This document shows, piece after piece, positions 1,169-25,322 of a stretch of 64,000 nucleotides of DNA. The first letter of the stretch is position 1, and every line of letters starts with the position of its first letter. The notes under the pieces are model-generated. The model was not told the origin of the DNA. It saw nothing but the letters and a program-made list of their open reading frames with translations, and did not search any database. The translations under genes were made by a program, and so were the position numbers. The DNA is from Clostridiales bacterium (GTDB lineage: Bacteria > Bacillota > Clostridia > TANB77 > CAG-508): assembly GCA_004554705.1 (NCBI GenBank), contig SFKS01000001.1, positions 8,186 through 72,185 of the forward strand, read 5' to 3'.

Positions 1169-2239
1169 TTAATAATTTATTTTTACAATCCATTCTCCAT
1201 TTTTCTTTGAGTTTATTCTTTCTATCAATCCTTTTTCTTGCATTTCTCCCATATATTTTTTAACAGTTCTTAATGATTTGTTAATTTTATTGGCGATTTC
1301 TTCTTGAGTTATAGAAGGTTTTGCCTTAAGTATATTAATAATTGCCTGTTCTTCCAAAGTACAATTATTTACTTTTAAATCATCCTTATTTTCATCTTGA
1401 ATATAGTCGATATGTGTATATCTGTTTTTTAATTTATTATTACTACCTGTAAGTAAATTATAAAAAAATTTTTCTAAATATGATATATCTTCAAAAATGT
1501 TTTTTTCAAAGTTTTTGTAATTAGCTCTTACTAATGAATTTCTAAAATACCATGAATTATCTGCAAAAACTTCATCATTGATATTAAACCCAAATGTTCT
1601 TAAATATTTTATTATAAACACTGCTGTAGTTCTTGTGTTGCCTTCACAAAATGGATGTACTTGCCATATGTTTGAAGTAAATCTACATAAATGTTTTATT
1701 GACTCTTCTAACCCTAGATCTTTATATGAAAAATTTCTTTCTTGTTCAAAATCATACTCAATAGTATCTTTTATTGTTTCATATGATGAATATATTACTG
1801 TATCTCCATTTAATACCCATTCTTTTTTTGTAAAATTATAATCTCTATATTTTCCTGCTGTCCTTAATATTCCTGTAAATAATCGTTTATGAATATTTAA
1901 CAATTCTGTTATAGAAAAGTTAAATGCTTTTTCACTTAATATTTCTGTTATTCTAGTAGCTACCTTATCTGCTTCTTCACTTTCTTGTTCAAAATCTTTT
2001 CTGCTATTTTGTACTTCATAATACTCATTTATTCTTTTTTTTACTTCTTCTATATTAATTTTTCCTTCAATATGTTCTTTTGCTGTTTTTATTAGATATT
2101 TTGATGGTTTTAATCCATCTACATCTTGAAGTCCTATTGCTGTTTCCCACACTTTTGTTTTTTCTACTTGAGTTGGCTCGCCTTGTTTAATATATTCAGA
2201 TAATTCTAAATTCCAATCTTTTTTCTTATCCATAACCAA
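1169..2239 (-). CDS. Fic/DOC family protein with a C-terminal winged-helix DNA-binding domain; the Fic motif is noncanonical (HPFCEGNTRTTA)
   Basis: The Fic core motif HPFxEGN is present, but T replaces the second G and A replaces the final R of the canonical HxFx(D/E)GNGRxxR. The C-terminal ~70 aa resemble a MarR/wHTH fold (…LRTVKKYMGEMQEKGLIERI…). Confidence 0.8.
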   Translation of the reverse strand: MVMDKKKDWNLELSEYIKQGEPTQVEKTKVWETAIGLQDVDGLKPSKYLIKTAKEHIEGKINIEEVKKRINEYYEVQNSRKDFEQESEEADKVATRITEILSEKAFNFSITELLNIHKRLFTGILRTAGKYRDYNFTKKEWVLNGDTVIYSSYETIKDTIEYDFEQERNFSYKDLGLEESIKHLCRFTSNIWQVHPFCEGNTRTTAVFIIKYLRTFGFNINDEVFADNSWYFRNSLVRANYKNFEKNIFEDISYLEKFFYNLLTGSNNKLKNRYTHIDYIQDENKDDLKVNNCTLEEQAIINILKAKPSITQEEIANKINKSLRTVKKYMGEMQEKGLIERINSKKNGEWIVKINY

Positions 2240-2288
2240 ACCTCCTACAAATATAATTATACCATAATTTCAATATAATATCAAATTT

Positions 2289-2331
2289 AAAGTGCAAGTT
2301 TTGCACTTTATTTTTAAAAACATTGCACTTT
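2289..2331. promoter_or_regulatory. Perfect palindrome AAAGTGCAA-gtt-TTGCACTTT plus a third TTGCACTTT half-site 22 bp downstream, in the fic upstream region; putative operator
   Basis: The palindrome sits 50-90 bp upstream of the fic start. The same half-site recurs at 4087-4128 and 5503-5544. Confidence 0.5.
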
Positions 2332-2442
2332 AAAATATTTGTTCTAATTTATTATATAATATTCCCGTATATACTTCATATCCTCTTCTTAGTAATTCAA
2401 TTGCAACCATATTCTCATATCTTAATGACGTTCTATTAGATA

Positions 2443-3273
2443 TTAATAAATTGAAATATCCTTAACTTCTTGTTCTACTCCTGTTAAATCTAGTTTTCCA
2501 TTCATTCCATTAAATACGATAGGAAATGTTTCTTCAAAACCATTACATTCAAATTTTATACACAATTCTGGTGTAGTTGTTTCTGCTAAATAGTTATCTA
2601 AGATAATAAATGGAGTTGTATAATTTTTAATTAAAGTGTTATCTAATTCTAATTCTCCTTGTTCATTTATAAAACAACTATATAAAGTTATTTTCACATC
2701 TTCTGATTTTGGAATTATTACAAAGCGATTTCCTATTTCCTTTTCTCTACTATCAGCTGATCTATAATCTAATACTTCTAAATTATTATATGTATAATTA
2801 TTGTGAAAATTATTATGTATGAATTCATCAATATTACTATCTAATACATAACCTATTGCTAAACATTGATTATCATTGAAATTTATAGTTGTTCCATTTG
2901 TTGTATTAACTTCTACAGCTTTACCCTCAAGAAAATCTACTACATCTCCAGAAATAGTATCTAATGCATAACCTGTTTCATCATCAAATCTATAATGAGC
3001 AACTTCTTCATCATTCTCATCATAGACAATTGCTATAAATTCACTGCTTTCGTAATAGCAATAAATATCTTCTGGATCACAATTGTGATATTGACTTATT
3101 TTTTCTTGCCACCCTCTTACAGTCATACATTTAAATTCTACTGAATCTTCATATATCATTCCGTCTTTATCTGGAACAAACATAAAACATTTAACATAAA
3201 TTATTGCACATATTACACATATCGCTATTCCTATTAAAATACCAATTATCACTTTTTTCATTTTAGCCCTCAT
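2443..3273 (-). CDS. Hypothetical membrane-anchored protein (N-terminal TM/signal anchor, Cys-containing extracytoplasmic domain)
   Basis: The 276-aa ORF has the hydrophobic N-terminus KKVIIGILIGIAICVICAIIYV. No recognisable catalytic motif was found. Confidence 0.5.
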   Translation of the reverse strand: MRAKMKKVIIGILIGIAICVICAIIYVKCFMFVPDKDGMIYEDSVEFKCMTVRGWQEKISQYHNCDPEDIYCYYESSEFIAIVYDENDEEVAHYRFDDETGYALDTISGDVVDFLEGKAVEVNTTNGTTINFNDNQCLAIGYVLDSNIDEFIHNNFHNNYTYNNLEVLDYRSADSREKEIGNRFVIIPKSEDVKITLYSCFINEQGELELDNTLIKNYTTPFIILDNYLAETTTPELCIKFECNGFEETFPIVFNGMNGKLDLTGVEQEVKDISIY

Positions 3274-3295
3274 TTTCTTTTAATCTTTATTGTAT

Positions 3296-3341
3296 AAAAA
3301 GGAATAAAGAATCATTGCTAAAAGTGTCTTTATTCCTTTTT
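3296..3341 (-). terminator. Rho-independent terminator (AAAAAGGAATAAAGA ... TCTTTATTCCTTTTT)
   Basis: A 15-bp stem is flanked by an A-run and a T-run, directly after the stop codon of the 3347-3877 gene. Confidence 0.6.
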
Positions 3342-3346
3342 ATATA

Positions 3347-3877
3347 TTATTCAACTGAAAATGTTAAAGTATTTAATATATTTTGAACAACTTCTGAATC
3401 AAATGCTGCTTTTACTTCTTCTTGATTTGATGACATAATGTCTTTTGAATAAACACATAATGATGCATATACAGTATCTGATACAGGCAATACAACTTTA
3501 TATGTATCATATCCAGCATAATAATAAGAGAATCCATTAATTCCATTATATGTCACTTCTTTATATTCTTCATCATCTTTATGTTCTTCTTTTAAATTAT
3601 TTATATTTTCGCCACTCCAAAATTTATCAAATTGAATTGTAATGTTAAAAGTATCTCCTTTTAATATTGCATCATTACGAGATGTTCTAAAATCCTCTTC
3701 GTTAGTTGACAAAGTATAATTAGCTCCTTCTTCAAAACTTAAATTTATTGTTGCTTTTGTATCTTCATCATCCTTAAATGAAACTGTTTCAAGTTTTCCT
3801 TTTCCACATCCTGTTAAAGCAACTACGCTCATTGCTAAAATAGCAAAAATTAATATTATTGAAACTATTTTTTTCAT
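3347..3877 (-). CDS. Putative lipoprotein
   Basis: Signal peptide with lipobox ...VVALTGC; 176 aa with no conserved domain recognised. Confidence 0.55.
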   Translation of the reverse strand: MKKIVSIILIFAILAMSVVALTGCGKGKLETVSFKDDEDTKATINLSFEEGANYTLSTNEEDFRTSRNDAILKGDTFNITIQFDKFWSGENINNLKEEHKDDEEYKEVTYNGINGFSYYYAGYDTYKVVLPVSDTVYASLCVYSKDIMSSNQEEVKAAFDSEVVQNILNTLTFSVE

Positions 3878-4080
3878 ATTTTCCTCCTTTCCAATTATAT
3901 TATTTATATCAAATTTTTTTGAATTTGAATAACTACTTACTGTGTGTCTATTTTCTCTTTCAATTCTGAAATTTAATAGTTTTTTTCTTCTACATATCTA
4001 TCCTTTCTTAAGATATTACATATTTTAAATTTTGTTTCACTTTTTTTATAATTCTATTATATATTTTTTAAAAAGACATC

Positions 4081-4133
4081 GTCCCTGAGGTGCAAATTTT
4101 TGACTTTTTTTGCCCCAAAAGTGCAAATTTTGT
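4081..4133 (+). repeat. Copy A of a ~50-bp repeated element carrying two AAAGTGCAAAT-like half-sites 31 bp apart
   Basis: Sequence gtccctgaGGTGCAAATttttgactttttttgccccaAAAGTGCAAATttt. It is about 90% identical to copy B at 5495-5547. Confidence 0.7.
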
Positions 4134-4166
4134 TAATGCTCAGTAGTTCTAATTAAAATTGTATAA

Positions 4167-4209
4167 AATATTGTAGGGGCGCCCTTTGGGCGTCCCTACA
4201 ATATTTTAT
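4167..4209. terminator. Strong GC-clamped hairpin AATATTGTAGGGGCGCCC-ttt-GGGCGTCCCTACAATATT followed by a T-run
   Basis: The palindrome has 18-nt arms. A GC-rich core is unusual in this AT-rich intergenic DNA. It lies between divergent genes, so it is not an ordinary gene-end terminator. Confidence 0.55.
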
Positions 4210-4293
4210 GACCTACTAAACATTAACCAATTTTTTATATTGTCTTTTATTTTTCTCTATTTTGTGATAAACTAGATGTATCGTTGATAGGAG

Positions 4294-4938
4294 GTGTTTT
4301 TTTTGTATAATATTATTGTAATAGATGATCATCAAATGTTGAGAGATATGATTTCCGAAACATTAAGTGCCCAAGATGATTTAAATGTTGTTGCAACTTC
4401 TGGAAATGCTAAAGATTCTCTTGAGCTATGTAAAAAATTGAATCCAGATTTAGTATTAATGGATGTGTGTACTGAAAATAATTCAAATGGAATTGCATAT
4501 TCTAAACTTTTAAAAAAACAGTTTCCTAATGTAAAAGTTATTATTATGACAGGTATTTTGGATTTGAATTTTATAAATGATGCAAAAGAGGCTGGAGTTG
4601 ATAGTTTTATATACAAAAATATTAGTAAAGACTCGCTTATTATGACTATAAAAAATACTTTAGATGGATATTCTATGTATCCTAATGATAAAAATAATTT
4701 GTCAAAAGATAATATATTATCTAATTTAACAGATTCTGAATTAAAAGTTTTAACTTTATACTGCAAATTATTAGATAGAGATGAAGTAGCAAATAAACTT
4801 GGAATATCTGCAAGGACACTAAAATCTCATATTTCATCTATTTATGCAAAAACAGGTTATGACAATTTAGCTAAACTTTCTGTTTATTGCGTATCTAATG
4901 GTTTAATTGTTCCTAACCTTGAATCACCTGAAGAATAA
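4294..4938 (+). CDS. Orphan NarL/LuxR (FixJ) family response regulator; the likely true start is TTG at 4303
   Basis: The receiver domain has DD at the N-terminus, the LVLMDV phospho-acceptor Asp, a conserved T, and K in SFIYK. The C-terminus carries a LuxR-type HTH (SELKVLTLYCKLLDRDEVANKLGISARTLKSHISSIYAKTG). The RBS AGGAGGTG lies 6 nt before TTG at 4303. No histidine kinase is adjacent. Confidence 0.8.
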   Translation: MFFLYNIIVIDDHQMLRDMISETLSAQDDLNVVATSGNAKDSLELCKKLNPDLVLMDVCTENNSNGIAYSKLLKKQFPNVKVIIMTGILDLNFINDAKEAGVDSFIYKNISKDSLIMTIKNTLDGYSMYPNDKNNLSKDNILSNLTDSELKVLTLYCKLLDRDEVANKLGISARTLKSHISSIYAKTGYDNLAKLSVYCVSNGLIVPNLESPEE

Positions 4939-4972
4939 AATAACTGCTATTTCTAGCAGTTATTATTTTTTC
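4939..4972. terminator. Bidirectional rho-independent terminator (AATAACTGCTA-tttc-TAGCAGTTATT + T-run) between convergent genes
   Basis: A perfect 11-bp stem overlaps the stop codon of the minus-strand gene. U-tracts are present on both strands. Confidence 0.7.
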
Positions 4973-5448
4973 TTATTAAATATCTTTTCTAAAAAATCAC
5001 GAATACTGTTAATCTTGTTTCTTCTTATTGTGTAATCAGCATAAGTTCCTTCTTCTATCATCCTTTCACGATTTTTCGTTAACATATCATCTCTTTTGTC
5101 ATTTATAATCCTATTAGCAGTATCTTTTAAAGTGTCTTTAGCTATTTCTGCTCTGTTTTCATATAAGATATCCTTAGCAATTTTTACAGACTGTTTTTTT
5201 TCTTCTTTTGTCATTTTTTTTGCTTTTGGTGTGCATTTTGATACTAGCGTATTAAATCGGTTTAACAATTCTGATGTAGAAAATTGCTGTTCAAATTCTG
5301 AAGCACTACTACATTTCTCACCTAAAGCCTGTGTATCTTTAATAAACATATCCATTTCTGATTTTAAATCATCTGGAACAGAAAAATAATCTTCAAAAAA
5401 GTTAATTTTTGCATCTACACAATTTTTTACTTCATCTAACATAAGCAT
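4963..5448 (-). CDS. Hypothetical protein (161 aa, charged/helical); the likely start is Met3 at 5442
   Basis: This is an ORF call only. The RBS GAAAGGAG is 7 nt from the second ATG. Repeat copy B lies in its promoter region. Confidence 0.5.
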   Translation of the reverse strand: MLMLDEVKNCVDAKINFFEDYFSVPDDLKSEMDMFIKDTQALGEKCSSASEFEQQFSTSELLNRFNTLVSKCTPKAKKMTKEEKKQSVKIAKDILYENRAEIAKDTLKDTANRIINDKRDDMLTKNRERMIEEGTYADYTIRRNKINSIRDFLEKIFNKKK

Positions 5449-5494
5449 ACTCCTTTCATTATTACATTATACCATTATATTATTTCTTTTTGCA

Positions 5495-5547
5495 TTGTCC
5501 TTAAAGTGCAAATTTTTACTTTTTCTTGCCCCAAAAGTGCAAATTTA
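5495..5547 (+). repeat. Copy B of the ~50-bp AAAGTGCAAAT-bearing element
   Basis: Sequence gtccttaAAGTGCAAATttttactttttcttgccccaAAAGTGCAAATtta. It sits 50-100 bp upstream of the 4963-5448 gene start. Confidence 0.7.
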
Positions 5548-5828
5548 AATATTGTTGTAATACAGAAAGATTTTGCCCTAGTAAATCGTGATATTTATTT
5601 TTTATTTTAAGTAGGTTTTTCTCTTTTTCTAGTTTTTCTATATTTTCTATACTTGTTACTAGTTCTGTATTATTAAGTTTTATTTTTTCATTTTGTTCAT
5701 CTAATTCTTTTTTTAAGCAATATTCTTCTGTTATATCAAATGCTATTACTTCATTTTGGTTAATAATAAATAGGTAATATTTTTACTACTTTGTCAACAG
5801 TCTGAAATATAATTATTTAATATCTTTT

Positions 5829-7413
5829 TTATCTAGATTTTGGTCCTTCGCCAATAGTTGTATCTACATTATATAAAAGTGGTTCATAAACTGTTCCTAC
5901 AAACCAAATAGTTCCATCTTCTTTGTCTCTTATTAAAAACATATATGGTTTATCAAAAGTTAAATCGATTTCTTCTACAGGTACATCGTATAAATAGTCA
6001 AAAAAGCTTCCTGCTCCTGCTCCACCTATCCATGTTGCTGCTGCTGCTTTTATACCATCTTGTGTAAATTCTATATTTGCTTTGTGACCAGCGTCTGTTA
6101 TATATGTATCCTTGTCATCACAAATTCCAGTTAAATTTGCTTTCCCTTCTTCAAAAATATTAGTTATTCCTAATTGTTGTAGGTCTTTTTTTAGGTTTAG
6201 TTCATATTCAAATTTAAATTTTGGAATATATCCTGTAATTTTTGTTACTACTCCAGATTTAAAATTTTCTACTTTTAAATCCTTTAGTTTATTTATTATA
6301 TTATCTATTTCTGCTTTATCTATATTTTTAATATAGTTATCTAAATCCTCTGTTGTTGGCATTATACCAATATATTGTAATGTTGTTCCATTGTATTCCT
6401 TTAAATCCTTTGCAAATACTTTGATGTTATTATCTACATATATAGAAAAATCTGTGGTATAATCTACTCTCTTATAATTTGAGTTTATTGCTGGAATATA
6501 TGTTTCTAAATATTTATTTGCTTCTTCTTCTATATTACTATCTGTTAAATCTTTATTACAATACTGCTTAAACTCTTCTTCACTTATACTTTTTGCCCAT
6601 TTTTTAAATTCGTTTTTCACGGTTTCTCTTATATTTGCTTCACCTATTTCTTTAACTATATCATAGTTATTTATAGATGCTATAATTTCCATACCTGAAA
6701 CCTTTTGAGAGTTTTCACCAAATTTATGTTCCGTAGGGTTTTCTGGTCCTACCCAGTAAAATTTTTCGTGTTCATAGAAACATTCTACCGGGCGTCCGGG
6801 TTTTTATAAATTTATCTTCCCAGTCCATATCTATTGCTAGTGCATTTATCAACATAAAGACCGTATTCTTGTCAACTTCTTCAAATAAGTCCTTAATTAA
6901 ATTTAATGTTTTATTGCTTACCCAAGAGTTAAGATTTTCTGGGCTTGAGAAAGAATCAACTTTAACTTCAGCGTTATATTTGGTTTTTAATGTACTTATA
7001 TAACTATTTTTAATTTTATTTTCATATGAATCCTTTGCAAATAATGCATTGGCAAAAGCCATATTGCTATTTGAGTTGTATTTTTTTAAGGTTTCATTTC
7101 CTAGTACATTAGAAATTTGTAACTTTGATTCACCTTCTGTGCCTTCTTCTAGCATTTTTAATGCATATTTTATTGATAGTGGACTATAAATCTTGTTTGC
7201 TTTTTGATTCTCCATCTTTAAAAACTTAATATCAAAATTTGAAGTATCTCCTTTTATGGTTTCTTTGTTCTCACTCTCATTTTTAGGTGGATTTGCTAAT
7301 ATGTCAGTATTTGTTGTTTTGTTGTTACATCCTGTTAATAAGATAGTCATTAGCAATACCAATGCTGTAATTAAAATTTTTTCAAAAAATTTCTTCATTC
7401 TAAATTCCTCCAA
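5829..7413 (-). pseudogene. Serpin (serine protease inhibitor) lipoprotein gene disrupted by a frameshift near 6786-6803
   Basis: The N-terminal ORF 6772-7413 has a lipoprotein signal (LLTGC) and serpin N-terminal motifs (KIYSPLSIKYALKML, NSWVSNKT, VFMLINALAIDMDWEDKF). The C-terminal ORF 5829-6692 has a serpin reactive-centre-loop/hinge (GIKAAAATWIGGAGAG) and C-terminal signature (FDKPYMFLIRDKEDGTIWFVGTVYEP). The two ORFs join in one reading frame across a single-base shift at the GC-rich site CCCGGACGCCCGG. Confidence 0.75.
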
Positions 7414-7547
7414 TTATTTTTATAAATTTAAACTATAGTTAAATTTTATATTATATGTATTTTTTTGTCAATAAAAAGCAAAAAATTTTAAATAATTTTA
7501 AAAAAGTATTTTAAAATTATAAATTATATTATATAAATATATATGAG

Positions 7548-8543
7548 GTGTTATTTATGATTGATCGTAAAGAAAATCCTGAATTTCTTAATTCTTTTTT
7601 AGATTATACAATTACTATACTTAATAAATCTCCCAATACTATTAAAGAATATAATTATGATATATCAAACTTTTTAAAATATATAAAAAAAGAATTTAAA
7701 TTATCTGAAGAAAAAAATATAAAGAATATTAAAATAGATGATATGGATATTTCTGTACTTAAAAAAATTACTCTTCAAGATATTCATGGATATATTTCAT
7801 ATATGGCAAGAGAGTTTAAGAGTACTCCTGCTACACGTGCAAGAAAAATATCTTCTCTTAGAGTGTTTTTTAAGTATCTTACTAGTAAAGCAAAATTACT
7901 TGAAGTAAATCCTGCACAAGATTTAGAAACGCCCAAACTTGGTCGTAGAATGCCAAAATATTTGTCTCTCGAAGAAAGCAAAAAGCTTCTAGAGGTAACT
8001 CAAAGCCAAGACAATAGAAACAATATAAGAGATTATGCAATTATAACTTTATTTTTGAATTGTGGTATGCGTTTATCTGAATTAGTTAATATTAATATAA
8101 GTGATATAGATTTATCAGAAAGTAAGATGACAGTTATAGGTAAAGGTAATAAGGAACGTACTATTTACTTAAATAAAGCATGTATGAATTCTATTAATGA
8201 TTATTTATCTATTAGACCCCATGATAAGGTTAAATTTGATTCTCGTGATGCACTATTTTTAAGTGAGCGTAAAGAAAGGATTAGTAATAGAACTGTACAG
8301 GATATTGTAAAAAAAGAGCTAAAAAAAGCTGAATTAGATATAAAAAAGTATTCTGTTCATAAATTAAGACATACTGCTGCTACACTCATGTATCAATATG
8401 GTAATGTTGATATCAGAGCTTTGCAAGAGCTTCTTGGACATGAAAGTATTTCTACTACTGAAATATATACGCATGTAAATAATGAAATAGTAAGAAATGC
8501 TGTTGAGAATAACCCTCTTGCAACGGAAAATAGGAAAATTTAA
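7548..8543 (+). CDS. Tyrosine site-specific recombinase (phage-integrase/XerC-like); the likely start is ATG at 7557
   Basis: The C-terminal catalytic region is HKLRHTAATLMYQYGNVDIRALQELLGHESISTTEIYTHV (R...HxxR...Y). The RBS GAGGTG is 6 nt before ATG at 7557. Confidence 0.85.
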   Translation: MLFMIDRKENPEFLNSFLDYTITILNKSPNTIKEYNYDISNFLKYIKKEFKLSEEKNIKNIKIDDMDISVLKKITLQDIHGYISYMAREFKSTPATRARKISSLRVFFKYLTSKAKLLEVNPAQDLETPKLGRRMPKYLSLEESKKLLEVTQSQDNRNNIRDYAIITLFLNCGMRLSELVNINISDIDLSESKMTVIGKGNKERTIYLNKACMNSINDYLSIRPHDKVKFDSRDALFLSERKERISNRTVQDIVKKELKKAELDIKKYSVHKLRHTAATLMYQYGNVDIRALQELLGHESISTTEIYTHVNNEIVRNAVENNPLATENRKI

Positions 8544-8571
8544 GAGACAGTGAGATATATCTCTCTGTCTC
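8544..8571. terminator. Inverted repeat GAGACAGTGAGATAT/ATCTCTCTGTCTC between the convergent integrase and SH3b genes
   Basis: The hairpin has a 13-nt stem. The minus strand carries a U-rich tract, so it likely terminates the SH3b gene. Confidence 0.5.
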
Positions 8572-8579
8572 TTGCCAAC

Positions 8580-8915
8580 TCAATCACCATCACCAAACGA
8601 AAGTCCCTTTACGGAGACCCATCCATATTGGGTCTCCACCCAATACGGATGGGGGCCGTCCATATACTCATACCTCCTTCCGGTAAGATACACTGTATCT
8701 CCAAAATACAGTTCATCTATGATTTCCGAGTTTAACCCCGGGCTTGCACGGACGTTTAACCGCTCATAAGAGACGGTTGCACTTTTCCCTACAGATTCGG
8801 GGTTATACTTTTCCCCGAATTGGGAAAAAAGGAGGATTGTGCTTCCGATGACAGCTACAACTGTCAAACAAAAGCTGAAAAATTTCCTTTTGTTTGTTAT
8901 TCTGTACTTTTTCAT
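8580..8915 (-). CDS. Membrane-anchored bacterial SH3 (SH3b/SH3_3) domain protein, GC-anomalous
   Basis: The ORF has an N-terminal TM/signal segment and an SH3b-like core (SYERLNVRASPGLNSEIIDELYFGDTVYL...GWVSVKGL). It is about 45% GC against about 27% for its neighbours. The RBS is GGAGAAAG. Confidence 0.7.
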   Translation of the reverse strand: MKKYRITNKRKFFSFCLTVVAVIGSTILLFSQFGEKYNPESVGKSATVSYERLNVRASPGLNSEIIDELYFGDTVYLTGRRYEYMDGPHPYWVETQYGWVSVKGLSFGDGD

Positions 8916-9091
8916 ATAGTTTCTTTCTCCAACTTAGCGTTAGGTAGTTGGCACCTTGCGGGTCAGACCTATTATACTCTGCCCTAGTAACTATTTACTT
9001 ACTTATATTATACTATTATTTATGTCAAAATGCAAATTTAAAGGAAATAATCTCTTTTATTAAAAGAAGGTTATTTCCTTTTGCAGTAGCC

Positions 9092-9388
9092 TTAGATTAT
9101 TGGAATCATTAATTCTTGGTCAATATGCAAATTGCTTGATTCTAAATTGTTTGTATTTTTAATATCAAAAACTATATATCTAATATCTTTGTTTTTATAA
9201 TAATCATTGCTTGTTTGTAAATCACTTGCAATACTCCATAAAGTATCACCTTTTGAAACTCTTATAGTTGTATATTCAGTTTCTTTATGTGAAAAAGTGC
9301 TTTTTGCACATATAGTGGATAATGCAAAAACCATCAATAGAATACAACATATACTTTTTATAAATTTCTCAAAATTAACTATTTTCAT
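9092..9388 (-). CDS. LysM-domain membrane protein, YneA-like putative SOS cell-division inhibitor (start taken at the internal ATG at 9388)
   Basis: Signal/TM segment FIKSICCILLMVFALSTICA followed by a LysM domain (YTTIRVSKGDTLWSIASDL). The RBS GGAGG is 7 nt before ATG at 9388. The upstream TTG-initiated extension in the ORF track overlaps the promoter -35 element. Confidence 0.7.
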   Translation of the reverse strand: MKIVNFEKFIKSICCILLMVFALSTICAKSTFSHKETEYTTIRVSKGDTLWSIASDLQTSNDYYKNKDIRYIVFDIKNTNNLESSNLHIDQELMIPII

Positions 9389-9402
9389 ACATTTACCTCC
9401 TG

Positions 9403-9457
9403 CGAACAATATTTCGCTCGCTAAGTATATTATAAACGCTTGTTCGTAATTTGTCAA
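9403..9457 (-). promoter_or_regulatory. Consensus sigma-A promoter (TTGACA-17-TATAAT) with two LexA (Cheo) boxes
   Basis: On the minus strand, TTGACA is at 9457-9452 and TATAAT at 9434-9429. Box 2, CGAACAAGCGTTTA (9446-9433), overlaps the spacer and -10. Box 1, CGAAATATTGTTCG (9416-9403), sits between the TSS and the RBS. Both match GAAC-N4-GTTC closely. Confidence 0.7.
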
Positions 9458-9522
9458 TAGTTTTTTTGAAAAAATTTAGTTTTTTTAGAAAATGTTGTTA
9501 TACACGGAAAAATCCTGGTATA

Positions 9523-9550
9523 CAATAAAAAAGACAACGCTTGGTTGTCT
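9523..9550 (-). terminator. Rho-independent terminator of xerD (AGACAAC-gcttg-GTTGTCT + U-run)
   Basis: The hairpin lies 13 nt downstream of the xerD stop, followed on the minus strand by TTTTTTATT. Confidence 0.7.
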
Positions 9551-9562
9551 CTACATAAAATT

Positions 9563-10444
9563 CTATGCTCTTGGATGAGCTTTTTTATATATATTTTTTA
9601 AACTATCATCTTGAAATTGCATATATACTTGTGTTGAAGATATGTCTGAATGTCCTAGCATACTTTGAATTGATTTTAAATCTGCACCATTTTGCAATAA
9701 ATGAGTTGCAAAAGAATGTCTTAATACATGTGGTGTTATTTCTTTTGATATATGGGCTTGTTCTTTATAGTATTTTATTATTTTCCAAAAGCCTTGTCTG
9801 GTTAGCCTTTTTCCATTTACATTTACAAATAATGCTTGTTCATTATCATCTTTTATCATATTAAGTCTAGCTGTTTCCATATATTCTTGTAAAGCATGTA
9901 GTGACATTTTGCCTAAAGGGATTATTCTTTGCTTATTTTCTGTCTTACAGGTTACTGAAGAATTTGTTAAGTCTATATCGCTAATATTTAAAGATATAAT
10001 TTCAGTAACTCTCATACCTGTTGCATATGCAATTTCTAACATTGCTTTGTCCCTGATGCTTTTTAGATCTTCTCCTTTAGGTTGGTCTAATAGTAATGAT
10101 ACCTCTTGAGAAGATAAAACACTAGGTGCTTTTTTTTCTATTTTAGGAGATTGAATACCTTTTGTAGGATCTTCTTTAACTATTTTGCTTTTTGCTAAGT
10201 ATTGATAGAACAGCCTAATTGACGCTAGGTGTCTTGAAATTGTAGAAGATTTTTTGTTTATTTTATGTAGATACTCTAAATAGTTTATTATATCTTCATT
10301 TTTTACGTTAACATAGTTAATATTATTTTCTATTATATATTCTTTATATTGTAAAATATCTCTTTGATATGATTCTAATGTGTTCTTTGATAGCTTTTTA
10401 TCTACTTTTATAAATTCTAAAAATTTTTTTATATCTTTATCCAT
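9563..10444 (-). CDS. xerD: Tyrosine recombinase XerD-type (chromosome dimer resolution)
   Basis: The C-terminus HVLRHSFATHLLQNGADLKSIQSMLGHSDISSTQVYMQ closely matches the XerD/RipX signature. The N-terminal core-binding domain has ...QRDILQY... . Confidence 0.8.
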   Translation of the reverse strand: MDKDIKKFLEFIKVDKKLSKNTLESYQRDILQYKEYIIENNINYVNVKNEDIINYLEYLHKINKKSSTISRHLASIRLFYQYLAKSKIVKEDPTKGIQSPKIEKKAPSVLSSQEVSLLLDQPKGEDLKSIRDKAMLEIAYATGMRVTEIISLNISDIDLTNSSVTCKTENKQRIIPLGKMSLHALQEYMETARLNMIKDDNEQALFVNVNGKRLTRQGFWKIIKYYKEQAHISKEITPHVLRHSFATHLLQNGADLKSIQSMLGHSDISSTQVYMQFQDDSLKNIYKKAHPRA

Positions 10445-21298: not shown

Positions 21299-22408
21299 TT
21301 ATAGTTTGATAATTTTTTCCCATGGCAAATTTGCTTTTCCAAAGTGTCCATAATTTGTGGTATCTGTGTATTTTATGTTTTTTAAATTCAAATATTTTAT
21401 TATTCCTTCTGGCGTTAAATCAAATTTTTTCTTTATTAAGTCTACTAGTTCTTTATCTGTTTTCTTTCCTGTTCCGAATGTATTTACATTAATTGAAACT
21501 GGCTCTTTAAAACCTATCACGTATGCTATCTGAATTTCGCATTTATCTGAATATCCATTAGCTACAATGTTTTTTGCTATATGTCTTAGCATGTATGCAG
21601 ACGACCTATCTACTTTAGTTGCATCTTTCCCTGAAAAAGCTCCTCCTCCATGACGTCCATATCCTCCATATGTGTCTACTATTACTTTTCTTCCTGTTAA
21701 TCCTGTATCTGCTAAAGGCCCTCCATTTACGAATCTACCTGTAGGATTTATATAAATTTTCGTGTTTTCATCTATCATATTTTTATCAATTACTTTATTT
21801 ATTACTTTTTCTTTAATAGCTACTTTTAGCTCTTCTAAAGTTACATTTTCTCTGTGCTGTGCTGATATTAAAATTGATTCAATTCTTTTTGGTTTTTCAT
21901 TTTCATATTCAACTGTCACTTGTGTTTTGCCATCAGGTTTTAGAAATGTGATTTCGCCTTTTTTTCTTACTTCTGCTAGTTTTTCTGATAATTTGTGAGC
22001 TAAATTTATTGCATATGGCATATAGTTTTGAGTTTCATTTGAGGCATAGCCAAAAATTATTCCTTGATCTCCAGCACCCCCTCGGTCTACTCCTAATGCT
22101 ATATCTGTACTTTGTTCTGTTATATTAATATCTATCTTACATGTTTTATAGTCAATGCTCGTATTATCATCATCATATCCTATTTCCTTTATTTTGTTCC
22201 TTATTAACTCTTCAATATTAAATTTTGCTGTTGTAGTTATTTGTCCTCCTACTACTATGGTATTTTTACATGCAAAAGTTTCAACTGCCACTCTAGAATT
22301 TTTGTCTTGTCTTAAGCATTCATCCAATATACTATCTGAAATATAATCACATAATTTGTCTGGATGTCCTTCTGTTACACTTTCTGATGTGAAATAATAT
22401 TTTCCCAT
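21299..22408 (-). CDS. metK: S-adenosylmethionine synthetase; start taken at MGKYYFTSESVTEGHPDK
   Basis: Conserved GHPDK and GGGAFSGKD motifs. The RBS GGAGAC lies before ATG at 22408. Confidence 0.93.
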   Translation of the reverse strand: MGKYYFTSESVTEGHPDKLCDYISDSILDECLRQDKNSRVAVETFACKNTIVVGGQITTTAKFNIEELIRNKIKEIGYDDDNTSIDYKTCKIDINITEQSTDIALGVDRGGAGDQGIIFGYASNETQNYMPYAINLAHKLSEKLAEVRKKGEITFLKPDGKTQVTVEYENEKPKRIESILISAQHRENVTLEELKVAIKEKVINKVIDKNMIDENTKIYINPTGRFVNGGPLADTGLTGRKVIVDTYGGYGRHGGGAFSGKDATKVDRSSAYMLRHIAKNIVANGYSDKCEIQIAYVIGFKEPVSINVNTFGTGKKTDKELVDLIKKKFDLTPEGIIKYLNLKNIKYTDTTNYGHFGKANLPWEKIIKL

Positions 22409-22430
22409 ATTGTCTCCTTTTTTAAAAAAA

Positions 22431-22474
22431 ATTAGAATAAAAGATTTATTCATCAATCTTTTATTCTAATTTTT
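22431..22474 (-). terminator. Perfect 15-bp inverted repeat ATTAGAATAAAAGAT...ATCTTTTATTCTAAT flanked by A-run and T-run; bidirectional terminator downstream of ferredoxin and immediately upstream of the metK RBS
   Basis: A palindrome with U-tracts on both strands. Confidence 0.65.
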
Positions 22475-22638: not shown

Positions 22639-22824
<186 letters not shown>

Positions 22825-22860
22825 TTATTTATAATTTGCAAAAGTTTCCTTTTGCTATTA

Positions 22861-23769
22861 TCAATTTTTAGAATTTTTTTTGTCTTTTTTGTCTAGTTCT
22901 TCCATCTTTTTTAATTCTTCCATATCTTCTTTACTAATTCCTTCTTGTTCTTTTTCAATATTCTTAATTATCTTTATGTCTTTTGCATTGTATTTTTTAA
23001 AGAAGTTTTCATCTCCATCTTTAAATTTTACTTTTACAATTTCTTTTAATGTTTCTAGTCCACATACTTCCCCTTGTCCATCTTCAGTTTTTACTATTGC
23101 ACCTATTTTAGGAAGTCTTTTTAGTTTTTCTTCATAAACATTTTGTTCATATTGTAAGCAACACATTAATCTTCCGCAGTTACCTGAAATCTTAGAAGGA
23201 TTTAATGAAACATTTTGTTCTTTTGCCATTTTTATGGATACTGTTTCAAAGTTCCCTAAAAAAGAACAACAGCATAATTCTCTGCCACAAACTCCATTTC
23301 CACCTAGTCTTTTCACTTCATCTCTGACTCCAATTTGTCTTAATTCAATTCTTGTTTTGTACACTGCAGCTAGATCCTTTACTAAATCTCTAAAATCTAT
23401 TCTTCCTTCTGCAGTAAAGAAAAATAGTATTTTACTTTTGTCAAATTTAAATTCAACATCCATAAGTTTCATTGGTAAGTTATGTTCTTTTATCTTTTTT
23501 TCGCATATTTTAAAAGCTTCTTTTTCTTGTTTTTTATTTTCTTCATTTTGTTTTGCATCTTGGCGTGTCGCAATTCTTATAATTTTTTTTAGTGGAGCTA
23601 CAATTTTTTCTTGAGGTAATTGCCTATTTGCGATAACCACCTCTCCGTATTCCATTCCCATTGCAGTTTCTACTATTACGTGTTCACCTGCATTAACTTG
23701 ATTCCCTGCTGGATCAAAAAAATATATTTTTCCTGCTTTTTTAAATCGAATTCCTATAATATTAGCCAT
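22861..23769 (-). CDS. ricT: PSP1-domain protein YaaT/RicT (stage 0 sporulation / RNase Y regulator complex)
   Basis: Conserved PSP1 core (…FKFDKSKILFFFTAEGRIDFRDLVKDLAAVYKTRIELRQIG…) and a Cys cluster CGRELCCCSF. Confidence 0.85.
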   Translation of the reverse strand: MANIIGIRFKKAGKIYFFDPAGNQVNAGEHVIVETAMGMEYGEVVIANRQLPQEKIVAPLKKIIRIATRQDAKQNEENKKQEKEAFKICEKKIKEHNLPMKLMDVEFKFDKSKILFFFTAEGRIDFRDLVKDLAAVYKTRIELRQIGVRDEVKRLGGNGVCGRELCCCSFLGNFETVSIKMAKEQNVSLNPSKISGNCGRLMCCLQYEQNVYEEKLKRLPKIGAIVKTEDGQGEVCGLETLKEIVKVKFKDGDENFFKKYNAKDIKIIKNIEKEQEGISKEDMEELKKMEELDKKDKKNSKN

Positions 23770-24670
23770 TACTTTTTAAACTCCTCTCTAGTCCAAACAA
23801 TAAATTGTCTATTGTCATATCATAATTACTGTTTCTTTTTAAGCTTAATTTTGTCTTTTCTATGGTGGATATACACTCTTCATATTTTTCTGTATTTCCT
23901 AAATCATTTAATATTTTATCATAGAATATTGTGTTTATATAATCTAAGATATAATATATTTCCTCTTTGTCACTAAATATCTTATCCTTTAAGCCGAATA
24001 TCTGTAATTCATTCAAGTGTTCTATATTATCAAATGTTTCTTTTATGTCTTTATATATTTCTGTTTTGTCTTTAAGCTTTAAAGCTTTTGCAATACTGCC
24101 ACCAAAAGCTTTTATCATTTCTTCGTCAAGCTCAATTGAATTTTTTATGAAATATTCTTTTATTTCGTTGTCTGATAATTTATTAAATTGTATTCTGATA
24201 CATCTTGATTTTATAGTATTAAGTAAAAGATTTTCATTACTTGTTATTAAAATAATGATAACATATTCTGGTGGTTCTTCTAGTGTTTTTAAAAAGCTAT
24301 TTTGAGCCTCCTTTGTCATATTTTCTGCATTATTAACTATATATATTTTTTTATTTCCTAATATAGGTTTTTCTAGAACTGATTTTGCTACAGATTTTAT
24401 TTGCTCCGTTCTTATCACATCTTCTTGTTCATCTATAATTATGATATCCGGATTATTACTACTTTCAAAGCTTTCACATGATTTACATCTGTTGCAAGGT
24501 TTATTTTCTGTGTTTGAACATAGAATTGCTTTCGCAAATTCTTTTGCAAGTGTAAATTTTCCAACTCCTACTTCGCCAGAAAATATATAACTATGTAAAA
24601 AATTATTATTTTCTACAATGTTTGTTAGACTTTTTTTGTTTTCATCATTTCCAATTATATTATCAAACAT
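23762..24670 (-). CDS. holB: DNA polymerase III delta' subunit
   Basis: AAA+ P-loop GEVGVGKFTLAKEFAKAILC and zinc-module CNRCKSCESF. Synteny holB-yaaT as in Bacillus. Confidence 0.85.
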   Translation of the reverse strand: MFDNIIGNDENKKSLTNIVENNNFLHSYIFSGEVGVGKFTLAKEFAKAILCSNTENKPCNRCKSCESFESSNNPDIIIIDEQEDVIRTEQIKSVAKSVLEKPILGNKKIYIVNNAENMTKEAQNSFLKTLEEPPEYVIIILITSNENLLLNTIKSRCIRIQFNKLSDNEIKEYFIKNSIELDEEMIKAFGGSIAKALKLKDKTEIYKDIKETFDNIEHLNELQIFGLKDKIFSDKEEIYYILDYINTIFYDKILNDLGNTEKYEECISTIEKTKLSLKRNSNYDMTIDNLLFGLERSLKSNG

Positions 24671-24673
24671 ATT

Positions 24674-25306: not shown

Positions 25307-25322
25307 TTATTTTCCTTCTTTC

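Follow-up and report, generated by a model that had tools for sequence, protein, structure and literature searches.

Organization of the Locus

The window, that is, the whole 64,000-nt stretch of Clostridiales DNA that was analyzed, carries at 7557-8543 (plus strand) a gene for a 328-aa XerC-like tyrosine recombinase (Pfam Phage_integrase, E 4.9e-44, together with an N-terminal SAM-like domain). Convergent with it lies an ORF at 8580-8915 (minus strand) whose 111-aa product is a single-pass membrane protein that carries an SH3b domain (Pfam SH3_3) at its C terminus. Both features were found where a preliminary description of the sequence had placed them. Next, also on the minus strand, are a yneA-like gene for a LysM single-pass membrane protein (9092-9388, 98 aa from the ATG; Pfam LysM; NCBIfam YneA 55.8 bits versus a cut-off of 60) and xerD (9563-10444), a conserved neighbor that scores 351 bits with the NCBIfam XerD model, above the equivalog cut-off of 329.6. 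Two LexA-box-like sites, read from the sequence, precede the yneA-like gene.

Positions ~8544-9036 would constitute a self-contained monocistronic minus-strand cassette, in which an AT-rich promoter and a GC-rich leader (55-85 nt) precede the 111-codon ORF and a palindromic terminator follows it. The candidate promoter is of sigma-70 type (TTTGCA, 18 nt, TATAAT; 9007-9036, minus strand), a pattern match only (10/12 in a consensus scan), and is located at the right end of the insert, which is AT-rich; TATAAT occurs once more at 8971-8976. The 5' leader (8916-8970, minus strand; 44% GC) is invariant in all alleles and contains a small hairpin according to sequence and consensus helices. Its segment CCAACU…AGUUGG overlaps the first bases of the Shine-Dalgarno sequence GGAG.

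At the other end, a near-perfect 32-nt palindrome (8542-8573, minus strand; AAGAGACAG[A/T]GAGATATATCTC[A/T]CTGTCTCTT) forms, as an inverted repeat, a 13-bp helix that is invariant in 13 alleles. It abuts and overlaps the recombinase stop codon, and the sequence reads on the minus strand into a U-rich tract. The palindrome is probably the intrinsic terminator of the SH3b gene; it was absent from the list returned by a simple terminator scan. We take it to be unlike the Firmicute dif site. The adjacent AGUUGGC (8574-8580, minus strand), which overlaps the last base of the stop codon, takes part in seven invariant pairs of the RNAalifold consensus and could possibly form a 5'-3' closing helix with GCCAACU of the leader (8946-8952). 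Since no covariation was found in this helix, it is a prediction only. The terminator hairpin of the yneA-like gene (9040-9081, minus strand; an inverted repeat) marks the right edge of the insertion, because comparison with the L013 and L015 spacers identifies it as the counterpart of the single hairpin that fills the spacer of relatives.

Composition of the GC-Rich Patch

The GC content of 8544-8990 is about 44%, compared with a window mean of 28.5% (0.285), which agrees with the value of about 45% stated earlier for this patch. Sliding-window analysis (300 nt) placed the maximum, 0.467, at 8551-8850, with both flanks at 0.16-0.31. When the whole window was divided into non-overlapping 450-nt bins, 8551-9000 ranked first with 0.431 and the runner-up bin had 0.371, in line with the claim that this is the strongest compositional anomaly of the window. 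The deviation is confined to about 450 bp and includes the non-coding ends of the patch (8544-8579 and 8916-8990), which have 44% GC each. Codon usage deviates as well: the SH3b ORF (44% GC) has a GC3 of 0.46, versus 0.169 ± 0.031 (maximum 0.25) in the 58 ORFs of the window that encode 150 aa or more.

Amino acid composition, an explanation that had been foreseen for the shift, was rejected as its source. Simulation from the amino acids of the protein and the codon usage of the window (n = 2000) predicted 33.2% GC for the coding sequence, with a top value of 37.8%, versus 43.8% observed. In view of the GC3 and simulation results, the GC anomaly is real, far beyond chance and not driven by amino acids.

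A Core Recombinase Gene Next to a Variable Interval

In the preliminary description, the recombinase was regarded as phage-type and as the mark of a genomic island. Its best NCBIfam match is XerC, with 240 bits (cut-off 335), followed by XerD with 220 bits (cut-off 330); as both scores are below the cut-offs, the protein is Xer-like, but not at equivalog level. Relatives were found at 510 loci of uncultured Clostridia, and at the best 80 of these 510 the recombinases are 70-88% identical. Synteny around the gene is kept, with rho upstream and the yneA-like LysM gene and xerD downstream. The yneA-like gene adjoins the recombinase gene in most relatives, and at most of the best 80 of the 510 loci it follows directly and free of cargo. 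The recombinase is a core Xer-like gene that neighbors the cassette and does not belong to a mobile element; the role of island marker was not borne out for it. Comparison of the interval from rho to xerD across relatives showed the cassette to be lineage-specific at its site and the recombinase to be core and syntenic.

For the proposal that the first ~9 kb of the window form a decaying islet, the evidence is mixed. The interval between rho and the recombinase gene does differ between species (2.4-9.9 kb, with different genes), and the serpin gene, described earlier as disrupted, does carry a frameshift when compared with its intact orthologue of 533 aa in L019. However, the genes at 1169-7413 have a native GC3 (0.08-0.25, like the remaining window), and no link between the interval and the recombinase was seen.

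Insertion, Fixation and Allelic Diversity of the Cassette

The insert of about 490 bp (~8544-9036) lies in the spacer between the recombinase and LysM genes, which measures 30-140 nt in most relatives. The cassette is missing from this spacer in 80 of 80 related species loci (the best 80 of 510) and is in the same place in 25 of 25 contigs of the host species, a pig-gut species, from independent metagenomes. By sequence comparison, the SH3b gene is a lineage-specific insertion at the recombinase/yneA site. Because the gene is missing at the site from the nearest species, a lateral event took place. The view that it was a recent one did not hold, as the cassette is fixed (25/25 contigs) and the SH3b alleles have diverged (dS ~0.5, dN/dS 0.15-0.30). 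The same gene at the same place with identical flanks had been named beforehand as the sign of an ancient, non-mobile gene; this is what is seen within the species, but not in related species, which lack it. The recombinase/yneA spacer carries different small genes in different species.

All SH3b alleles (14/14) have an intact ORF. In-frame indels and numerous synonymous changes distinguish them, and their haplotype blocks form a mosaic. Nucleotide diversity is about 30-fold higher in the coding sequence than in the flanks (pi 0.087 versus ~0.003). This hypervariability, confined to the coding sequence, is not accounted for by the structure selection discussed below; it is likely that the SH3b protein is a surface target of selection in the population.

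A repeat search found no direct repeats bracketing 8544-9036 or the upstream interval, and the sole 11-nt perfect direct repeat (8882, 9073) is internal. No target duplication was found at the cassette, and att-like repeats, as anticipated for an island, do not flank it.

Several other explanations were tried and rejected. An assembly chimera is excluded by identical junctions in contigs of many independent samples. L099, L107 and L109, with spacers of 343 nt, looked like empty sites or short alleles, but their spacers contain N runs that are scaffold gaps. For a repeat or MITE-like element, no further copy was found in the window or in 92 loci. An integron was rejected on the score of the integron-integrase profile (106 bits, cut-off 265); on inspection, the locus has just one gene, which converges on the recombinase gene, and the 3' palindrome has only 32 nt. 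The hallmark of diversity-generating retroelements is variation at template adenines, mostly non-synonymous. The in-frame indels, many synonymous changes and dN/dS of 0.3 exclude the SH3b gene as a target of such an element, and a second copy of the variable region, as a template, was not found in the window.

The SH3b Protein and Its Family

The match to SH3_3 (PF08239; E 1.4e-7, 32 bits versus a cut-off of 27) covers residues 52-105, and no NCBIfam model matches the protein. An AlphaFold2 model (pLDDT 89.3) consists of a helix at residues 9-31 and a beta-barrel. The best Foldseek matches in the PDB are the SH3b domains 9ovi, 4krt and 2krs (probability 1.00), with E-values of only ~1e-2 and TM-scores of 0.6-0.7 on target length. 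SH3b is a peptidoglycan-binding fold, and the domain is predicted from the modeled topology to face outwards.

Family members have 100-127 aa, with a membrane helix at the N terminus and a single SH3b domain, and alignments show that the window protein conforms to this pattern. Conserved residues are N54, R56, LTG77-79, W92 and GW98-99, and SH3_3 is the precomputed Pfam domain in most of the 35 family matches. As judged from the aligned sequences, the SH3b protein is under purifying selection and conserved across the family. The hosts are AT-rich gut and rumen Clostridia (~28-32% GC). In five lineages, the family gene lies between the POR operon and fdx56-PSP1-holB; the window has its own fdx56-PSP1-holB-signal peptidase-kinase block at 22642-26738 (47-77% identity), without a family gene. 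Altogether the family occupies at least three different loci. On this distribution, the TM+SH3b family is indigenous to the clade.

A donor was searched for broadly. An exhaustive HMMER search of 1.8e9 cluster representatives (~15e9 proteins) gave 372 matches at E ≤ 1e-3, with no homologue between 45% and 96% identity, and a word-based homologue search returned the gene's own two clusters and nothing else. Phages and plasmids had no match to the SH3b gene by tblastn, no relative was found in viral contigs, and the JGI metagenome contigs yielded one distant SH3 match (44% over 48 residues). Two longer homologues (P0001 and P0002, 183 and 186 aa) were rejected as a signal of truncation: their lengths are spurious, because the gene callers translated TGA as Trp and thereby extended the frames into the recombinase gene, in antisense to it. 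Genome-trained gene callers missed the SH3b ORF in 20 of 20 long-contig loci.

The preliminary description had interpreted the patch as recently acquired donor DNA of ~45% GC, brought by or with a phage-type integrase, in a ~9-kb island that was inserted between rho and xerD and is now decaying. A foreign-looking GC3 (0.46 versus 0.17), the lack of the gene at this site in 80 related species, the variable rho-to-recombinase interval and the frameshifted serpin all fit such a history. It is nevertheless largely refuted, and we consider it very improbable. The recombinase belongs to the core genome and keeps its neighbors, flanking direct repeats were not found, the 25 contigs all carry the cassette with alleles at a dS of 0.5, and GC3 is native in the genes of the 7 kb upstream. 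The 1.8e9 representatives, phages and plasmids yielded no homologue above 45% identity, so that no donor lineage emerged. The homologues of AT-rich relatives, syntenic and apparently vertically inherited, are equally GC-enriched: eight family genes on contigs with 28-31% GC have a gene GC of 0.34-0.46, and family coding sequences are 3-16 GC points above their host genomes (the DNA of family genes was sampled from AT-rich contigs only).

Predicted Folding of the mRNA Strand

The sense strand of the window gene folds far better than dinucleotide-shuffled sequences (z = -7.4 for the transcript, -7.25 for the coding sequence only), compared with z = -1.0 for the LysM neighbor. The diverged B allele reaches z = -9.9 with partly different hairpins. 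For the eight family genes on contigs with 28-31% GC, the sense-strand z values were -7.0, -9.6, -3.7, -4.7, -9.6, -1.1, -6.4 and -2.7, and a second computation gave an agreeing picture (-8.7 for L120, -6.5 for L117). The sense strand was more stable than the antisense strand in all nine genes (9/9), although the antisense strand folds well too, with z values of -5.2 to -9.0 where it folds best.

When synonymous codons were permuted, the nine genes had z values of -4.1, -5.1, -8.3, -6.3, -5.2, -4.8, -2.8, -1.6 and -3.8. The first of these is the window gene, with a GC excess of 15 points, and seven of the eight others have z ≤ -2.8. Controls were centered near zero: 22 window genes gave -0.21 ± 1.04 (minimum -1.97), and the fdx and POR neighbors of the family genes gave +1.5 to -1.6 (GC3 0.11-0.19). 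Two members, L121 and L125, are only weakly structured: their z values were -1.1 and -2.7, respectively, against dinucleotide shuffles, and -1.6 and -2.8 against codon permutations. The computed folds demonstrate a family-wide excess of predicted structure. Mean pairing probability over the nine genes is lower in the start region (0.41) than in the body (0.66).

The hairpins predicted within the coding sequence include the following four, all on the minus strand. The first, read in the direction of translation, is a consensus helix at the codons of the transmembrane helix (8849-8866, GACAGUUGUAGCUGUC), and per-gene folds on the codon alignment show GACUGCUGUAGCAGUC at the matching codons of L120. 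A nested hairpin, UUCGGGG…CCCCGAA inside UUUUCCC…GGGAAAA, follows at 8783-8828 (consensus helices, codons FSQFGEKYNPESVGK); 13 of its 14 pairs never vary between alleles, and the remaining pair is unpaired in two alleles. The 15-bp hairpin at 8686-8718, an inverted repeat and consensus helix, stays paired in the B allele despite six one-sided changes to or from G-U, with one compensatory change. The most stable single element is a 16-bp hairpin with a GGAG loop at 8618-8653 (inverted repeat and consensus helix, codons PHPYWVETQYGW). By eye, a GGA (CsrA-type) loop motif was inconsistent between the hairpins of different family genes.

Among 13 alleles, 99.3% of the cells of 109 predicted pairs are paired, with four compensatory pairs, and 0 of 500 shuffles matched the observed paired fraction or covariation score; the alleles represent only about three independent lineages, and the consensus structure was taken from the same alignment. 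Across the family, a hairpin is present at the homologous Trp-x-Glu/Gln-x-Gln codons in five of eight lineages, with differing stem sequences, and is missing in three. Here 65% of cells are paired, compared with 57% in shuffles and 24-49% for slid partners; 4-5 of 500 shuffles were as high, and unstructured related sequences reach such a level in 5-25% of cases. For this one hairpin, the evidence of covariation is suggestive.

It could be argued that the hairpins act as DNA, in cruciform or single-stranded form, as recombination or transposition substrates of the attC or IS200/IS605 kind, and that GC content and location both follow from mobility. The family is indeed found at three or more loci, a tyrosine recombinase gene adjoins the cassette, the recombinase/yneA spacer holds different small genes between species, and the best antisense z values (-5.2 to -9.0) are substantial. 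We judge this highly unlikely, as the sense strand is the more stable one in 9/9 genes and stems stay paired through G-U, which is meaningless on the opposite strand or in duplex DNA. Moreover, the hairpins are spread over the coding sequence rather than placed at the cassette ends, the window and related loci contain no repeat copy and no target duplication, the integron-integrase model gave 106 bits against a cut-off of 265, and most species have the recombinase without the cassette.

Another rival view takes the GC excess as a side effect of intense local recombination, through GC-biased gene conversion at a surface-protein locus that is hypervariable, and the predicted structure as incidental. 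It is suggested by the ~30-fold excess of pi in the coding sequence over the flanks and by the mosaic haplotype blocks. Conversion would not, however, order synonymous codons into stems (permutation z -4 to -8), the invariant leader and terminator are equally GC-rich, and family members at other loci show the same trait. We give this explanation very little credence.

A further possibility is a structured regulatory RNA, either dual-function or a tightly repressed toxin-like message as in type I/SOS toxins, with the protein being secondary or conditional. Type I toxins are small and hydrophobic, under ~60 aa, and have an antisense RNA encoded in cis or in trans. The extreme folding z values would suit such an RNA, as would the ability of GCCAACU in the leader to pair with either the Shine-Dalgarno region or the AGUUGGC after the stop codon. 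The gene also lies directly downstream of the SOS-type yneA-like gene and encodes a product of YneA-like topology, small and single-pass with an outward peptidoglycan-binding domain. On the other side are the purifying selection on the protein, its family-wide conservation, the relatively open start region, and a length of 111 aa with a folded domain, unlike type I toxins. There is no evident antisense gene, and inspection by eye showed no LexA box before the cassette. A search of 7000-9800 with Rfam 15 (E ≤ 10) gave at most ~24 bits (E ≥ 2.6) within 8544-8990, far under gathering scores, and family genes at six other loci had no Rfam matches. This reading is unlikely, if less so than the previous ones.

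Interpretation

The composition, the insertion site, the fixation in the population and the protein fold being established, we favor, with moderate confidence and on the basis of computed folds, the explanation that the GC richness results from selection for mRNA structure in a native TM+SH3b family, and not from a foreign donor. Synonymous sites would be selected for a chain of sense-strand hairpins. The GC island is best read in this way because G-C stems are needed in an AT-rich background, and the GC shift is a property of the gene family rather than a donor signature, because the homologues of AT-rich relatives, at unrelated loci, share both the excess and the folding.

The arrival of the cassette in the recombinase/yneA spacer would then have been a relocation, or a transfer from a related lineage, of roughly species-level age, with the neighboring recombinase probably uninvolved; the usual place in other lineages is the one between the POR operon and fdx. 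The mRNA structure is presumed from the models to form in vivo and to act in cis. An open start codon combined with a compact, nuclease-resistant body may give a long-lived and steadily translated message for the membrane protein.

A sharp GC spike beside a recombinase gene is usually attributed to horizontal transfer. In the present case, this attribution errs about the integrase and probably also about the cause, and selection for nucleic acid structure can mimic the signature of foreign DNA in very AT-rich genomes. Because callers skip the ORF, the SH3b gene is invisible in many annotations of metagenome-assembled genomes. Should the structure form in living cells, the family would offer a compact natural case of a protein gene in which constraints on the RNA fold dominate at synonymous sites, useful for studies of mRNA stability and translation in uncultured gut Clostridia.

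A bolder version, which we regard as rather unlikely, is that the small TM+SH3b genes of AT-rich gut Clostridia form a class of structured coding RNAs not described before, in which the whole ORF is also a conserved RNA fold with a function of its own. The fold would then be strong enough to give rise to the GC island and to keep genome-trained callers from recognizing the gene. Candidate functions would be a dual-function riboregulator, a decoy for an RNA-binding protein or RNase, or a translation switch through alternative pairings of the 5' leader. Other small accessory genes of the same genomes may follow the logic of a structured coding sequence as well.

Comparison With Known Systems

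The protein resembles solved SH3b domains, namely those of the phage phiSM101 endolysin (4krt), B. anthracis GBAA_2967 (9ovi) and ALE-1/lysostaphin (1r77), in that its sequence scores above the Pfam cut-off and its predicted beta-barrel superposes. It differs from these proteins in being a lone domain behind one transmembrane helix, about 110 aa long, without a catalytic domain. YneA is an SOS cell-division suppressor of Bacillus. The SH3b protein shares its size class and predicted topology (N-terminal membrane helix, outward peptidoglycan-binding module), and the yneA-like gene is the immediate upstream neighbor of the cassette. However, the module is SH3b here and LysM there, the two have no sequence similarity, and the cassette lacks a LexA box, so a function in common with YneA is speculation by analogy.

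As in integrase islands and prophage remnants, a deviant gene stands beside a tyrosine recombinase gene in a species-variable region. In contrast to them, the recombinase is a core Xer paralogue, att repeats are lacking, no tRNA or further mobility gene is apparent, and the insert is a single ~490-bp gene fixed in the species.

GC-rich intergenic regions mark structured non-coding RNAs in AT-rich genomes (GC-IGR; PMC6429828, PMC11109978); SH3 is not mentioned in these two papers. With its ORF uncalled, the SH3b locus looks like a 548-nt region of this kind, and in annotations it appears as GC-rich, structured and "intergenic". Unlike GC-IGR RNAs, it is protein-coding, as seen from the intact ORFs, the dN/dS of 0.3 and the SH3b fold, and it has no Rfam match.

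Structured bacterial mRNAs include those with 5' stabilizer stem-loops (aprE, ermC, the STAB-SD of cryIIIA) and the fold-back messages of type I toxins (hok, tisB). The predicted SH3b message is similar in its 5' hairpin before the Shine-Dalgarno sequence, possible 5'-3' pairing, strong terminator, compact body and open start. Compared with hok/tisB-type mRNAs, no antisense RNA is evident for the SH3b gene, and the 5'-3' pairing is a resemblance only. PMC6883848 reports that structured coding regions lengthen functional half-life. What sets the present case apart from these structured bacterial mRNAs is that the predicted structure spans the whole 330-nt coding sequence of a folded-domain protein and comes with a GC content raised by about 15 points.

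Composition of the SH3b gene and its surroundings

Direct reading of the sequence confirmed the coordinates in the preliminary description for two open reading frames (ORFs), a tyrosine recombinase gene on the forward strand (7557-8543, here rec) and a 111-aa SH3b gene on the reverse strand (8580-8915, SH3_3 match above the Pfam cut-off). The GC anomaly claimed for this region is also real. In 300-nt windows, GC peaks at 0.467 (8551-8850) between flanks of 0.16-0.31, and among 450-nt bins over the whole 64 kb, 8551-9000 ranks highest with 0.431, versus 0.371 for the runner-up and a window mean of 0.285. The anomaly is greatest at silent sites, with a GC3 of 0.46 in the SH3b ORF versus 0.169±0.031 (maximum 0.25) in the window's long ORFs (n=58). 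The untranslated ends (8544-8579 and 8916-8990) have 44% GC each. Amino-acid composition alone, which had been considered as an explanation, does not account for the shift, since the SH3b protein back-drawn with window codon usage yields 33.2±1.1% GC (maximum 37.8% in 2000 draws) against the observed 43.8%.

The recombinase does not mark an island

The preliminary description regarded rec as a phage-type integrase marking an island. Its product matches Pfam Phage_integrase (E 4.9e-44) and has SAM-like N-terminal domains. When one genome per species was scanned, relatives were encoded at 510 loci; the best 80 share 70-88% identity across their whole length and all come from uncultured gut Clostridia of ~25-30% GC (recorded as Clostridium sp. 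CAG:452, Candidatus Merdicola or 'uncultured Clostridia bacterium'). Window proteins mapped onto these 80 loci gave a conserved order: rho, then rec converging on a yneA-like LysM gene that follows xerD. The top NCBIfam model for rec is XerC (240 bits, under the equivalog cut-off of 335); the bona fide XerD is encoded at 9563-10444 on the reverse strand (351 bits, cut-off 329.6), and the LysM gene lies at 9092-9388 on the same strand (YneA, 55.8 bits, cut-off 60). With so many close relatives, conserved synteny and XerC as best model, rec is neither a phage integrase nor an island marker.

An islet had been suggested between rho and xerD. The interval does vary between species (2.4-9.9 kb from rho to rec), but the window genes between rho and rec have native composition (GC3 0.08-0.25). 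Among them, only the serpin gene recurs elsewhere in the best 80 loci (in L019). Its reported disruption is a genuine frameshift: the gene (5829-7413, reverse strand) is split into ORFs of 213 and 287 aa, with the junction at about 6770-6790 near the GC-rich ACCCGGACGCCCGGT, and L019 encodes an intact 533-aa orthologue (7829-9430) that shares an internal insert of ~100 aa. The split into two ORFs (208 and 287 aa as called) is present in every population contig, and the window serpin is a fixed pseudogene or, alternatively, a recoding site.

Upstream of the LysM gene, within about 9395-9457 on the reverse strand, we noted a TTGACA-17-TATAAT promoter with 12/12 consensus matches. CGAACAAGCGTTTA overlaps this promoter and CGAAATATTGTTCG follows it; by eye, the two are similar to Gram-positive LexA (Cheo) boxes, in agreement with the gene's match to the SOS cell-division suppressor YneA.

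The insertion site

In most of the best 80 loci, rec and the LysM gene converge on a 30-140 nt spacer with one hairpin, and tblastn (E < 10) detected an SH3b relative near rec in 0/80. The window therefore carries a ~490-bp insertion (about 8544-9036), here called the cassette, in the rec/LysM spacer. It begins right behind the rec stop codon, and the ancestral hairpin persists at 9040-9081. The att duplications expected at its borders did not materialize, as no direct repeats were found around the insertion, and neither the window nor 92 loci contain a further copy of it. Membership tests rejected the locus as genomic island, integron, DGR target and Rfam family.

In other species, the spacer is filled by unrelated small genes in the same orientation (73-76 aa in L031, L033 and L036; 99-101 aa in L035, L044 and L046; others in L057, L077, L078, L059 and L016) or by multi-kb inserts (L072, L073, L081). 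This variety identifies the spacer as a permissive site, i.e. an insertion hotspot.

Population, age and donor

Short contigs from numerous independent metagenomes, most of them from pig gut, encode the SH3b protein, exact or as 96% or 77% variants, every time with the LysM gene on one side and rec on the other. Including long contigs (up to 276 kb) retrieved by exact LysM or rec protein, the cassette is present in 25/25 delimitable spacers. Apparent short versions (L099, L107, L109) are runs of N, not shorter alleles. These runs sit exactly over the SH3b coding sequence (CDS), and assemblers apparently break at this hypervariable GC-rich stretch; in L108 and L109, miaB is called only as a 93-aa fragment. 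Source pipelines left the ORF uncalled in 20/20 long-contig loci of the species (L094-L113), though it is called on short contigs, so that annotations show a 548-nt 'intergenic' region. Database entries of 183 and 186 aa are artefacts in which TGA is read as Trp (code 4) and the frame runs antisense into rec.

The ORF is intact in 14/14 distinct alleles (109-116 codons, GC3 0.43-0.48 throughout). Two main haplotypes (A and B) differ by a dS of 0.47-0.62, with a dN/dS of about 0.3 and in-frame indels. As rec and its orthologue in L013, the nearest species, which lacks the cassette, are separated by a dS of 0.66, the cassette is of about species-level age. Given the divergence of its alleles and its presence in all delimitable spacers, the acquisition is not recent, contrary to the earlier proposal. 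Nucleotide diversity is 0.085-0.089 in the SH3b CDS versus about 0.003 over 8 kb of flanks; retrieval of contigs through exact neighbour proteins biases this sample toward identical flanks. The haplotypes have a mosaic block structure, and leader and terminator show no variation. Imports from sister lineages do occur, as seen in a diverged rec block (dS about 0.6) of locus L009. The 30-fold diversity excess is confined to the SH3b CDS.

In L009 (1105-2091, corresponding to window 7557-8543), the first ~215 rec codons are diverged (dS 0.62, dN 0.06) and the last 113 near-identical to the window (dS 0.06). L010, with the same SH3b allele, has window-type rec over the contig-covered part of this block. 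We regard the block as evidence for mosaic recombination with a sister lineage.

Searches for a donor lineage were negative. A word-indexed search of 5.8e9 clusters matched only the gene's own two clusters, exhaustive HMMER against 1.84e9 representatives gave no match between 96% and 45% identity, and viral contigs contained no relatives. JGI contigs yielded one distant SH3 match only, and tblastn none in 50,697 phage and 72,556 plasmid records.

An SH3b family of AT-rich genomes

HMMER detected full-length relatives (98-117 aa) that share the architecture of the SH3b protein, and a profile search gave 35 relatives, 33 of them outside the gene's own two clusters and nearly all of 100-131 aa. 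N54, R56, L77-T78-G79, W92 and G98-W99 are invariant. An AlphaFold2 model on the family alignment (mean pLDDT 89) has a helix (9-31) followed by a beta-barrel, and the highest-ranking PDB matches come from bacterial SH3-like cell-wall-binding domains (probability 1.00, modest E of about 1e-2), including B. anthracis GBAA_2967, the phiSM101 endolysin and C. perfringens CPF_0587. The product is thus a single-pass membrane protein carrying one SH3b domain, which by analogy would face outward and bind peptidoglycan, and it adds a new member to the SH3b superfamily.

In five lineages (L114/L116, L117, L120, L125, L127), the family gene is flanked by the POR (2-oxoacid:ferredoxin oxidoreductase) operon on one side and the fdx56-PSP1-holB-signal peptidase-histidine kinase block on the other. 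In L123, its neighbours are a UPF0236 gene and minD-minE-rodA. The window has the fdx56 block, syntenic with this usual location of the family, at 22642-26738 (reverse strand, 47-77% identical to that of L120), with no SH3b gene at this site and no POR operon match anywhere in the window; a hairpin and metK (21299-22456) follow fdx56. The family is thus native to this AT-rich clade. In the window's species, the gene came to its present site by relocation or by transfer from a relative. The family's GC excess is kept at a syntenic, apparently vertically inherited locus, the window's species using a different site, and its persistence against AT-biased genome composition favours selection over a donor signature that has yet to ameliorate.

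In one lineage (L125, 3715-7859, and L126), the SH3b gene of the POR locus is directly followed by a prophage lysis/tail module (Amidase_2/CW_7 endolysin, r1t-type holin, tail-fibre repeat, Peptidase_S74) and a Spo0E-like gene.

Codon order and predicted RNA structure

With dinucleotide-preserving shuffles, the mRNA strand of the cassette folds with a z of -7.4 (CDS alone -7.25; neighbouring LysM gene -1.0), and the B allele, with partly different hairpins, reaches -9.9. DNA was compared for seven further family genes, all on 28-32% GC contigs. Gene GC is 0.34-0.46 in the family versus 0.28-0.32 for the host locus, and GC3 0.25-0.46 versus 0.11-0.19 for fdx and POR neighbours. Sense-strand z values are -7.0, -9.6, -3.7, -4.7, -9.6, -1.1, -6.4 and -2.7, with the antisense strand less negative in 8/8. 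When protein and codon set were fixed and only the order of synonymous codons was permuted, family z values were -4.1, -5.1, -8.3, -6.3, -5.2, -4.8, -2.8, -1.6 and -3.8, versus -0.21±1.04 (minimum -1.97) for 22 window genes and +1.5 to -1.6 for fdx and POR neighbours. For the shuffle-based folding, a second implementation gave the same picture in L120 and L117. The extra stability is thus written into the order of codons, beyond composition or protein sequence, over lineages only ~30% identical in protein. GC richness and predicted RNA structure are traits of the SH3b family.

Several small genes of the rec/LysM spacer also have raised GC3 (0.27-0.39), with permutation z values of -2.2 to -4.3 in L035, L044, L046, L078 and L077 and about 0 in L031, L033 and L036. 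A gene for a predicted membrane protein of 124-125 aa lies directly upstream of the SH3b gene in L127 (2480-2854), L121 (296-673), L128 and L129. In L127 this gene, too, has raised GC3 (0.35) and a strong predicted fold (z -5.5), unlike its L121 counterpart (z -1.2).

RNAalifold on 13 distinct alleles predicted 109 pairs in 15 helices, with 99.3% of cells paired and compensatory changes at 4/109 pairs. In the B allele, helix 8686-8718 has six one-sided changes, each creating or removing a G-U pair, and one double change, with pairing preserved. Neither the paired fraction nor the covariation score was reached by any of 500 shuffles, and slid partners pair in 34-49%, for alleles that represent about three lineages and a structure derived from the same alignment.

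Per-gene folds on the codon alignment place hairpins at the same codons across the family, namely at the transmembrane helix and the NVRE, VTLTG and Trp-x-Glu/Gln-x-Gln regions. For the last of these, represented in the window by a 16-bp stem (8618-8653, reverse strand), an ungapped 39-nt alignment of 8 genes has 65% of cells paired, versus 57% in shuffles (4/500) and 24-49% for slid partners. Both sides have changed at 6/9 pairs, and in three of the genes this hairpin is missing at that register; the covariation is suggestive rather than conclusive. The window stem is so close to a perfect palindrome that its two DNA strands encode near-identical peptides, PYWVETQYGWV and PYWVSTQYGWG, and tblastn consequently matches the locus on both strands. 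Over nine genes, mean pairing probability is 0.41 at the start-codon region versus 0.66 in the CDS body.

Transcript architecture and a possible role of the fold

The cassette is monocistronic, with a promoter-like site (9007-9036), an invariant GC-rich leader (8916-8970), a CDS (8580-8915) dense in predicted stems and a probable palindromic terminator of 32 nt (8542-8573), followed by a U-rich tract overlapping the last rec codons, all on the reverse strand. Assuming that the RNA folds in the cell as predicted, the fold would work in cis by leaving the initiation region accessible and making the body compact and resistant to nucleases, and the message would thereby gain a long functional half-life. 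Alternatively, the leader may act as a regulatory switch: GCCAACU (8946-8952) has two alternative predicted partners, AGUUGG at the Shine-Dalgarno sequence, with which it overlaps, and AGUUGGC (8574-8580), just past the stop codon. All three segments are invariant, and the alleles thus speak neither for nor against such a switch.

A role of the fold in message half-life would be consistent with the general finding of PMC6883848 that mRNA structure regulates protein expression via changes in functional half-life. Two papers on GC-rich intergenic regions as structured-RNA markers (PMC6429828, PMC11109978) do not mention SH3, and we found no literature account of a protein gene family with a conserved GC island and whole-CDS hairpin chain in AT-rich Clostridia. 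Compared with known systems, the SH3b genes would be a variant of structured mRNAs, in which a GC island and predicted hairpins span the whole CDS.
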